From: Escherichia phage P1
Sequence record: MH445380.1
DNA length: 64,000 nucleotides
Direction: 5' to 3' (one strand)
Shown: one piece after another, positions 49,152 through 52,864 of the stretch
How the letters are laid out: the number at the start of each line of letters is the position of its first letter
How positions within the stretch are numbered: the first letter of the stretch is position 1
The notes under the pieces: model-generated
Databases searched by the model: none
Seen by the model: the letters and a program-made list of their open reading frames with translations, nothing else
Told to the model about the DNA's origin: nothing
Translations under genes and position numbers: made by a program

Positions 49152-51882
<2,731 letters not shown>

Positions 51883-51896
51883 CCACCAAAAATAAC

Positions 51897-51914
51897 CCCG
51901 GCAGCTGCCGGGGT
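51897..51914. terminator. Rho-independent terminator-like hairpin after pro
   Basis: Perfect palindrome ccccggcagctgccgggg followed by ttctcgtt. Confidence 0.65.
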
Positions 51915-51929
51915 TCTCGTTAACTATTA

Positions 51930-52187
51930 TCACCTTCGCCTGCGTGCCATATATTTGCGCACCGCGCGGCCTGGACAATCTGAAGCTGTTTCTTTCTGCT
52001 GCATCAATCTCGCAGCCATGCTCAAAAATGTCAGGCACAGCCGAAGCCCGGCATACAATAGCGGTTCCAGTGGCCACGTCTCATTGAGCACATATACCGC
52101 CATGAAAATCGAGTCAAAAACTATCGCCGCCAGCGATAACTTCATTGTCGAAAGTCGGCGGAGCTGCCGGAGTTTATTCATTGACAA
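51930..52187 (-). CDS. Small membrane protein downstream of lyz (85 aa), possible lysis accessory protein
   Basis: One hydrophobic segment LSLAAIVFDSIFMAVYVL and basic C-terminus; 14-nt overlap with lyz end. Confidence 0.3.
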   Translation of the reverse strand: MSMNKLRQLRRLSTMKLSLAAIVFDSIFMAVYVLNETWPLEPLLYAGLRLCLTFLSMAARLMQQKETASDCPGRAVRKYMARRRR

Positions 52188-52731
52188 GCCCCGTCAGGCA
52201 AAGCTGGCGTTCTTTTTCACGGCGAATCTTTAAACCTCGCAGGGGCACGCCGTTACTGTTCACGAAATCAGGGAGATGGTTACACATATTCACCCATTCC
52301 CCTTTCTGCGCCCACTTGTGGATGGACGTTTCTACTCGCATGCCTCGCGCTTTGCTGTAGTAGGTCCGTAAGCTATTGCATCCCATATTGAATGCCGCGC
52401 TTGTCATTGCACTGAAGGCATTATCGGGCATGTCTTTGCCCCGGAAGTGCTGATTAATACAGCGTTCAGCGATCAGGATATTCTTTTCCCAATCAGCGGC
52501 GATTTGCTGGTCGGTTTTTCGCACACCCGGCGTTACCCCGTGTGTATTACCGATCCCGTCAGTCCATACCCCCGCCGGGCACATGTATGGATCACGTCGG
52601 CAACCTTCAGCGTTACCAATCAGCTCAAGCCCCGCCTGGTTGGTTCGCACATTGCCATTACCCATCACGATGGTAATCATCACCGCGATAGCGCAAATTG
52701 CACCGCCTCCTGCGGCTGTTTTTCCCTTCAT
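52174..52731 (-). CDS. lyz: SAR-type endolysin Lyz (185 aa)
   Basis: N-terminal signal-anchor-release segment MKGKTAAGGGAICAIAVMITIV; T4-lysozyme-like catalytic region; track ORF extended 14 codons. Confidence 0.85.
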   Translation of the reverse strand: MKGKTAAGGGAICAIAVMITIVMGNGNVRTNQAGLELIGNAEGCRRDPYMCPAGVWTDGIGNTHGVTPGVRKTDQQIAADWEKNILIAERCINQHFRGKDMPDNAFSAMTSAAFNMGCNSLRTYYSKARGMRVETSIHKWAQKGEWVNMCNHLPDFVNSNGVPLRGLKIRREKERQLCLTGLVNE

Positions 52732-52864
52732 AAAGACCTCATAAGCGAATTTTTTACGCTCCAGGACAAACACTCATTCACAGCCAATACCGACTGACTC
52801 GATCCCTTTAGAAGGCACAGGATAATGCAAATCACTTGTTAGCCACGTTTCAAAGATATACATT

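Follow-up and report, generated by a model that had tools for sequence, protein, structure and literature searches.

lydD, a pinholin gene overlapping the SAR endolysin gene lyz in a P1-type phage, and its link to the DUF7940 family

The lyz-lydD operon and the lysis genes of the window

The window, i.e., the whole stretch of 64,000 nucleotides of Escherichia phage P1 that was analysed (sequence record MH445380.1), carries on its minus strand a short open reading frame (ORF) that overlaps the 3' end of lyz, which codes for the SAR endolysin. This ORF is almost certainly lydD, which comes second and last in the late lyz operon of a P1-type phage and encodes an inner-membrane pinholin of 83 amino acids. 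It is a real gene, its name and experimental function are already known, and no finding speaks against the identification. The features of the operon, together with the remaining lysis genes of the window and the gene cin, were as follows:

52819..52837, minus strand: late promoter LPlyz, 19 nt (exact match to LPlyz of P1 AF234172; function as given in the P1 annotation)
52174..52731, minus strand: lyz, SAR endolysin, 185 amino acids from its ATG (Pfam, PHROG, N-terminus and the P1 annotation Lyz)
51930..52181, minus strand: lydD, pinholin (match to P1 LydD, PHROG 21930, dN/dS, invariant ATG and published experiments)
51930..51971, minus strand: variable tail of LydD, residues 71-83 (allele comparison)
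51894..51915, minus strand: intrinsic terminator of the lyz-lydD operon, 14 nt past the lydD stop
51862..52077, minus strand: lydE, 71 amino acids, 'putative antiholin' in P1, overlapping lydD in its 3' half and the convergent gene pro at its end
61670-62113, minus strand: lydB (blastn against NC_005856)
62110-62439, minus strand: lydA (blastn against NC_005856)
62507-62788, minus strand: lydC (blastn against NC_005856)
62916-63476: cin (blastn against P1)

The gene order around lydD was prt, pro (plus strand), lyz (minus strand) and ssb (plus strand), and the layout, with lydD second in the lyz operon and the convergent pro downstream, was that of AF234172. The lyz product matched the Pfam family Phage_lysozyme (2e-22) and the endolysin family PHROG 7 (7e-69); its basic N-terminus is followed by a Gly/Ala-rich hydrophobic segment, MKGKTAAGGGAICAIAVMITIVMG, and the protein carries C13, E42, C44, C51, and T57. 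By its place beside lyz in one operon, lydD shows the linkage to a SAR endolysin expected of a pinholin. The terminator is composed of a 9-bp stem (7 G-C pairs), a 4-nt loop, and the tail ATTTTTGGTG on the minus strand, with a centroid fold of -18.6 kcal/mol (z = -2.5). Since LPlyz is located upstream and this strong terminator lies just downstream, lydD is the last gene of a two-gene late transcript.

The other lysis genes of P1 are situated elsewhere in the window. lydB, lydA, and lydC were found at full length with 98.9-99.7% identity to the genes of P1 NC_005856 (98.8-99.7% when cin is included; blastn), and because all three are present, the P1 holin/antiholin set is complete in the window. 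Two of the products, LydA and LydC, are canonical holins, and the third, LydB, is an antiholin (PMC9025707). Like LydD, for which two transmembrane domains (TMDs) are predicted, both LydA and LydC are small two-TMD lysis proteins, encoded by the same phage and in the same window. They differ from LydD in being unrelated to it in sequence, in lying about 10 kb away, and in supporting the endolysin R, which makes them large-hole holins (PMC9025707).

With regard to the identity of the ORF, identity over the 401-nt region around it was complete with Punavirus P1 MH422554 (100%), 97.8% with reference P1, and 96-99% with P1, P7, SJ46, RCS47, and other Punavirus genomes. The reference P1 genome (AF234172/NC_005856) annotates the ORF as lydD, 'putative holin', with its start at an ATG and an 8-nt overlap with the end of lyz; this annotation of P1 lydD (AAQ13988.1) reportedly goes back to Lobocka and colleagues in 2004. 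The protein also matched PHROG 21930 'holin' (3.6e-58) over positions 1-83 of 84. Compared with P1 LydD, 82 of the 83 residues of the window protein were alike. The single substitution is R71G, and a TGA replaces the fifth terminal Arg codon, giving 83 instead of 84 amino acids. Over residues 1-70 the window protein is 99-100% identical to LydD of P1 and P7, and the position of the gene, its overlap with lyz, the late promoter, and the terminator context are shared; the P1 protein differs in having R71 and five terminal arginines where the window allele has G71 and four, leaving the latter with two fewer positive charges in the tail. The allele with G71 and 83 amino acids was common to MH422554, SJ46, and some plasmids, and an additional deletion of 6 nt in the lydD tail was observed in 673R5. 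Such allele changes in the tail could shift the timing of lysis.

In divergent P1-like plasmid prophages (L003, L005-L011, and L018, comprising Salmonella, K. aerogenes, JK004, and related contigs), ssb and the lyz-lydD module were retained. The divergent P1-like plasmids carry a ProQ-domain gene and repL as the flanks of lyz-lydD in place of pro and prt. As the pair persists with changed neighbours, lyz-lydD appears to move as a unit across genome arrangements.

Gene start, coding signal, and competing reading frames

The ORF was originally predicted as 85 codons starting from a TTG (51930..52187, minus strand), with an overlap of 14 nt with lyz. An ORF of this extent is present in the ORF listing, and the overlap is indeed on the same strand and 14 nt long when counted from the TTG, but it comes to only 8 nt from the conserved ATG. 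The TTG start was rejected, as the codon is not conserved, not even in P1: it reads CTG in P1, P7, RCS47, and SJ46, and relatives farther away have CTC or TTA. The ATG at position 52181, two codons past the TTG, was invariant among the homologues compared, and the gene is therefore assigned to 51930..52181 on the minus strand, with 83 codons and an 8-nt overlap with lyz. The overlap between the lydD ATG and the lyz stop reads ATGAATAA and is conserved, taking the form ATGA in the Salmonella lineage; based on this stop/start arrangement, lydD is probably translationally coupled to lyz.

A protein search identified homologues of 84 amino acids with 76-84% protein identity in Salmonella, Klebsiella aerogenes, Cronobacter phage JK004, and a faeces metagenome. 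The four divergent homologues, with a DNA identity of 73-80%, all keep 84 codons without a single indel. Differences were concentrated at third codon positions, with a distribution over the three positions of, for example, 10:6:33 in the first 210 nt of lydD, and the Nei-Gojobori dN/dS was 0.06-0.18 in every informative pair. In the last 45 nt of the gene the sequence constraint was weaker, with the basic character kept. The lydD frame was the only one of the six to stay open in all relatives, the other two sense frames and the three antisense frames being interrupted by stops in at least one of them. Loss of the reading frame in related phages had been named in the original prediction as grounds for discarding the ORF; the frame was intact at 84 codons in every P1-like relative examined, within the same range of dN/dS, and lydD is under purifying selection. 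A 92-amino-acid antisense ORF (51955..52233, plus strand) could mimic this substitution pattern, because its codons and those of lydD have their third positions in common. This shadow ORF is open in P1-type sequences, but it was rejected as a candidate, since stops break it in JK004, in K. aerogenes, and at the faeces-metagenome locus.

The gene was present in 495 PLSDB plasmids and in 489 of 5426 complete RefSeq E. coli genomes (~9%), where 480 of the 491 matches were on plasmids. When the annotation under the match was inspected in 40 evenly spaced RefSeq records, 32 had the lysozyme only, seven a 'hypothetical protein', and one a 'holin'. In one record with a 100% identical sequence, the whole 290-nt interval was unannotated; the gene calls of two other records began at the ATG (as hypothetical) and at Met13 (as 'holin'), respectively. 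An example of the locus in a RefSeq plasmid is found at positions 709-999 of L025 (NZ_CP062890.1). No match for LydD or LydE was obtained in NCBIfam.

These gaps in annotation, namely that RefSeq/PGAP gives no lydD in most P1-like plasmids and that NCBIfam has no model, speak for an ORF that is open by chance within the 3' untranslated region of lyz, as does the fact that ORFs this long are common by chance in the region. Non-genic ORFs of 80-148 amino acids are numerous in the same 3-kb stretch, and the length of the ORF alone is therefore uninformative. We consider the probability of such a spurious ORF negligible, given the dN/dS of 0.06-0.18 and the 84 codons kept free of indels at 73-80% DNA identity, a homologous protein family that reaches down to 26% identity, the conserved synteny with SAR lysozymes, and the published genetic and expression experiments on lydD (PMC9025707). 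There is likewise very little chance that lydE, rather than lydD, is the real gene in this interval. P1 and several close relatives have its frame open, and AF234172, MH422554, and OR339795 annotate it; MH422554 and phi456 annotate lydE in place of lydD. Against this, the lydE frame is interrupted by stops in each of the four divergent homologues, a W codon has become a stop that truncates it in P7 and RCS47, and at the variable sites of the overlap among seven close relatives, one synonymous and eight non-synonymous changes were counted for lydE versus seven and two for lydD. Furthermore, the lydE frame extends across the terminator hairpin and covers 21 nt of the convergent pro, searches of PHROG, Pfam, and NCBIfam gave no match to it, and it can be removed with lysis unaffected (PMC9025707). 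lydE is probably spurious and not a gene. The position of the lydD start within its own frame leaves a further alternative, which we regard as unlikely though less so than the preceding two: that the functional start is the internal Met13 (ATG at 52145, 71 amino acids), or that both starts form a pair in which the long form is an antipinholin. The models for the latter are S21-71 versus S21-68 and lambda S107 versus S105, the long form of LydD having four extra positive charges at its N-terminus. M13-K14 is invariant in all P1-like homologues, PGAP begins the gene at M13 in one RefSeq record, and the family representatives P0012 and P0018 begin here; moreover, N-terminal positive charges convert the phage 21 pinholin to an inhibitor, and the unusual +4 N-terminus of LydD has been remarked upon (PMC9025707). 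However, a purine-rich Shine-Dalgarno-like sequence preceded M13 in none of the homologues examined, and at position 13 most of the distant family members have L, I, or V, which means that a second start is no feature of the family. A start at Met13 only is also at odds with the invariance of M1, N2, K3, R5, Q6, L7, R9, L10, and S11; purifying selection acts on the N-terminal 12 codons too, which shows that the long form is translated.

A side observation concerns three single-member database proteins from P1-like contigs (P0004, P0006, and P0008), in each of which a frameshift joins the N-terminal part of LydD to a different reading frame, the one of lydE in the case of P0006 and P0008. These fusions could be sequencing errors or natural frameshift variants.

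Lysis function and predicted membrane topology of LydD

LydD had been predicted to have one transmembrane segment, but two hydrophobic segments were found on the Kyte-Doolittle scale. TMD1 spans approximately residues 13-33, with a maximum of 1.89 over 19 residues, and TMD2 approximately residues 38-60, with a weaker maximum of 1.42; the latter carries the invariant residues R47 and R58. The lower count can be explained by the score of TMD2, which falls below the classical cut-off of 1.6. TMD2 is amphipathic, with a hydrophobic moment of 1.31 compared with 0.68 for TMD1. On its helical wheel, the conserved residues Y43, R47, T51, S54, R58, and Q61 fell within an arc of ~80 degrees, and by this polar face TMD2 would line a pore. 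The strongly basic C-terminus, which had also been predicted, was confirmed: the protein ends in ...RAVRKYMARRRR, with a net charge of +5 over the last 20 residues. We infer that this basic tail tunes the timing of lysis. LydD has a net charge of +4 over its 12-residue N-terminus, -2 across the loop NETWPLE, and +5 over the C-tail; by the positive-inside rule, the topology would be N-in/C-in. AlphaFold2, run on a shallow alignment, returned a helix-turn-helix with an additional helix in the tail (helices 3-35, 40-67, and 70-82) with low confidence (pLDDT 64.5, pTM 0.31), and a hairpin of two TMDs is the likely fold as modelled. A search of PDB sequences with the profile of the LydD family gave no match at E<=10.

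The experimental evidence comes from P1/P7 LydD, 99-100% identical to the LydD of the window over residues 1-70. Expression of a cloned lyz-lydD(-lydE) operon caused lysis that was faster and more complete than that with lyz alone, lydD mutants lysed late in liquid culture, and a P1 lydA lydD double mutant formed no plaques (PMC9025707). In liquid E. coli culture LydD is accessory and, without LydA, unable to lyse the cells; its induction alone kills cells and lowers viable counts (PMC9025707). Lysis by the canonical lambda R endolysin was not supported by LydD, either in P1 delta-lyz::R or in a two-plasmid system, and was supported by LydA and LydC (PMC9025707). Bednarek et al. (2022) concluded that LydD and the SAR endolysin Lyz form a pair in which LydD is the pinholin (PMC9025707), and a later methods paper lists lydD as 'pinholin' (PMC10067587). 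The suggestion in the original prediction that the ORF might encode a lysis accessory protein is thus supported, the gene being lydD and its product a pinholin with an accessory role in liquid culture (PMC9025707).

A canonical large-hole holin would share with LydD the small size, the two TMDs predicted for it, and the basic C-terminus, as in class II holins, and 'holin' is the annotation in P1, SJ46, JL22, and PHROG 21930. That LydD acts in this way is nonetheless highly improbable: unlike LydA and LydC, it did not support the cytoplasmic lambda R endolysin (PMC9025707), and its family is linked to SAR-type endolysins, for which large holes are unnecessary. In the pinholin mechanism proposed here, LPlyz would transcribe lydD together with lyz, and LydD would insert into the membrane as an N-in/C-in helical hairpin. 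At a critical level of LydD, small pores would form and depolarise the membrane, and the loss of the proton motive force would release the membrane-tethered SAR domain of Lyz, which would thereby become active and degrade the wall. LydA and LydC, the canonical holins, and the antiholin LydB, whose genes lie ~10 kb away in the same window, would act in parallel.

Relationship to DUF7940 and comparison with the phage 21 pinholin

Searching 1.84 billion cluster representatives exhaustively with an HMMER profile returned a small family of only 14 proteins at E<=1e-3. P0009-P0020 were found by the LydD profile at E = 8e-18 to 4e-4, and the distant members were 54-82 amino acids long and 26-45% identical to LydD. 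Six of these proteins (P0009, P0010, P0011, P0013, P0014, and P0015) carry precomputed matches to PF25612. LydD itself scored 22.9 bits against this Pfam family, DUF7940 (E = 1.4e-4, profile positions 7-63 of 63), which is below the gathering threshold of 27 bits; the P1-like homologues scored 19-23 bits, and gp03 of Aeromonas phage 56 scored 42 bits. A19, D23, Y43, R47, T51, A57, and R58 were invariant family-wide.

In five of seven distant contexts, the lydD homologue overlapped the 3' end of a PF00959 lysozyme gene, namely in Aeromonas phage vB_AsaM-56 and in the contigs with P0009, P0010, P0011, and P0014. DUF7940 members downstream of lysozyme genes were located at the following positions:

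L004, 2489-2701: DUF7940 member downstream of a lysozyme gene
L018, 2501-2749: DUF7940 member downstream of a lysozyme gene
L019, 904-1122: DUF7940 member downstream of a lysozyme gene
L021, 2501-2725: DUF7940 member downstream of a lysozyme gene
L023, 2501-2719: DUF7940 member downstream of a lysozyme gene

All the upstream lysozymes had a short basic N-terminus followed by a hydrophobic segment rich in Gly, Ala, and Ser, an arrangement that is the hallmark of SAR endolysins. In Aeromonas phage 56, annotated Rz-like spanins come after the lydD homologue, and in two other contexts it is followed by genes of DUF2570 or DUF2514, which we take to be spanin-type families. The DUF7940 proteins, such as the 'holin' gp03 of Aeromonas phage vB_AsaM-56, resemble LydD in length, predicted two-helix layout, invariant core, and overlap with a lysozyme gene. 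In contrast, the long basic tail is specific to the P1 clade, several DUF7940 members ending in acidic tails, and spanin-like genes follow in other phages, whereas lydD is the last gene of its operon in P1. Because the lysozymes of the distant contexts are SAR-like and the lyz-lydD pair persists in divergent P1-like plasmids with changed neighbours, linkage to SAR endolysins is regarded as a property of the family; this family-wide linkage fits a pinholin role, and DUF7940 is probably a pinholin family, as judged from sequence and gene context.

When compared to S21-68, the pinholin of the lambdoid phage 21, LydD is likewise a small membrane protein, with two predicted helices and a basic C-terminus, that is encoded beside a SAR endolysin, and like S21-68 it does not release canonical endolysins (PMC9025707). 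The two proteins nevertheless differ in several respects. The gene order is reversed, with lydD downstream of the endolysin gene and the pinholin gene of phage 21 upstream. S21-68 has a weakly hydrophobic, externalisable TMD1 after a short and nearly uncharged N-terminus, whereas TMD1 of LydD is the more hydrophobic of its two helices and is preceded by four positive charges, so that its externalisation in the manner of S21-68 is unlikely. S21-68 has a glycine zipper in TMD2; TMD2 of LydD (LEPLLYAGLRLCLTFLSMAARLM) contains one Gly and no zipper of the GxxxG type, by direct reading and likewise according to PMC9025707. Bednarek et al. (2022) had noted the two predicted TMDs, the five terminal arginines, the +4 N-terminus of 12 residues, and the lack of a glycine zipper, and given these features they stated that the mechanism of LydD may differ from that of S21-68 (PMC9025707). 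At the sequence level, S21-68 scored 122 bits on PF04971 (Phage_holin_2_1), which validates the query sequence used. LydD had no match to PF04971 at E<=1, and hhalign of the LydD family profile against S21-68 gave a probability of 0.1%, i.e., no relationship. LydD works like a pinholin without belonging to the S21 family.

Taken together with DUF7940, LydD may represent a second, evolutionarily independent class of pinholins, a proposal that we put forward tentatively and with slightly more doubt than belief. In such a class, the protein would form a non-externalising N-in/C-in hairpin without a glycine zipper, in which the pore would be built or gated by invariant charged residues within the membrane, namely D23 of helix 1 together with R47 and R58, which share one conserved polar face in helix 2, possibly with Met1 and Met13 products as an inhibitor/effector pair. 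What our analysis adds to the published work on LydD is its relationship to DUF7940, a D/R/R core without variation in the family, and the synteny with SAR endolysins across the family. For annotation, it means that a characterised lysis gene is unannotated in most RefSeq P1-like plasmids and that its Pfam relatives are still labelled DUF7940. For the biology of the family, the invariant membrane-embedded Asp and Arg residues offer a lead to how pores are formed by a pinholin unrelated to S21-68.
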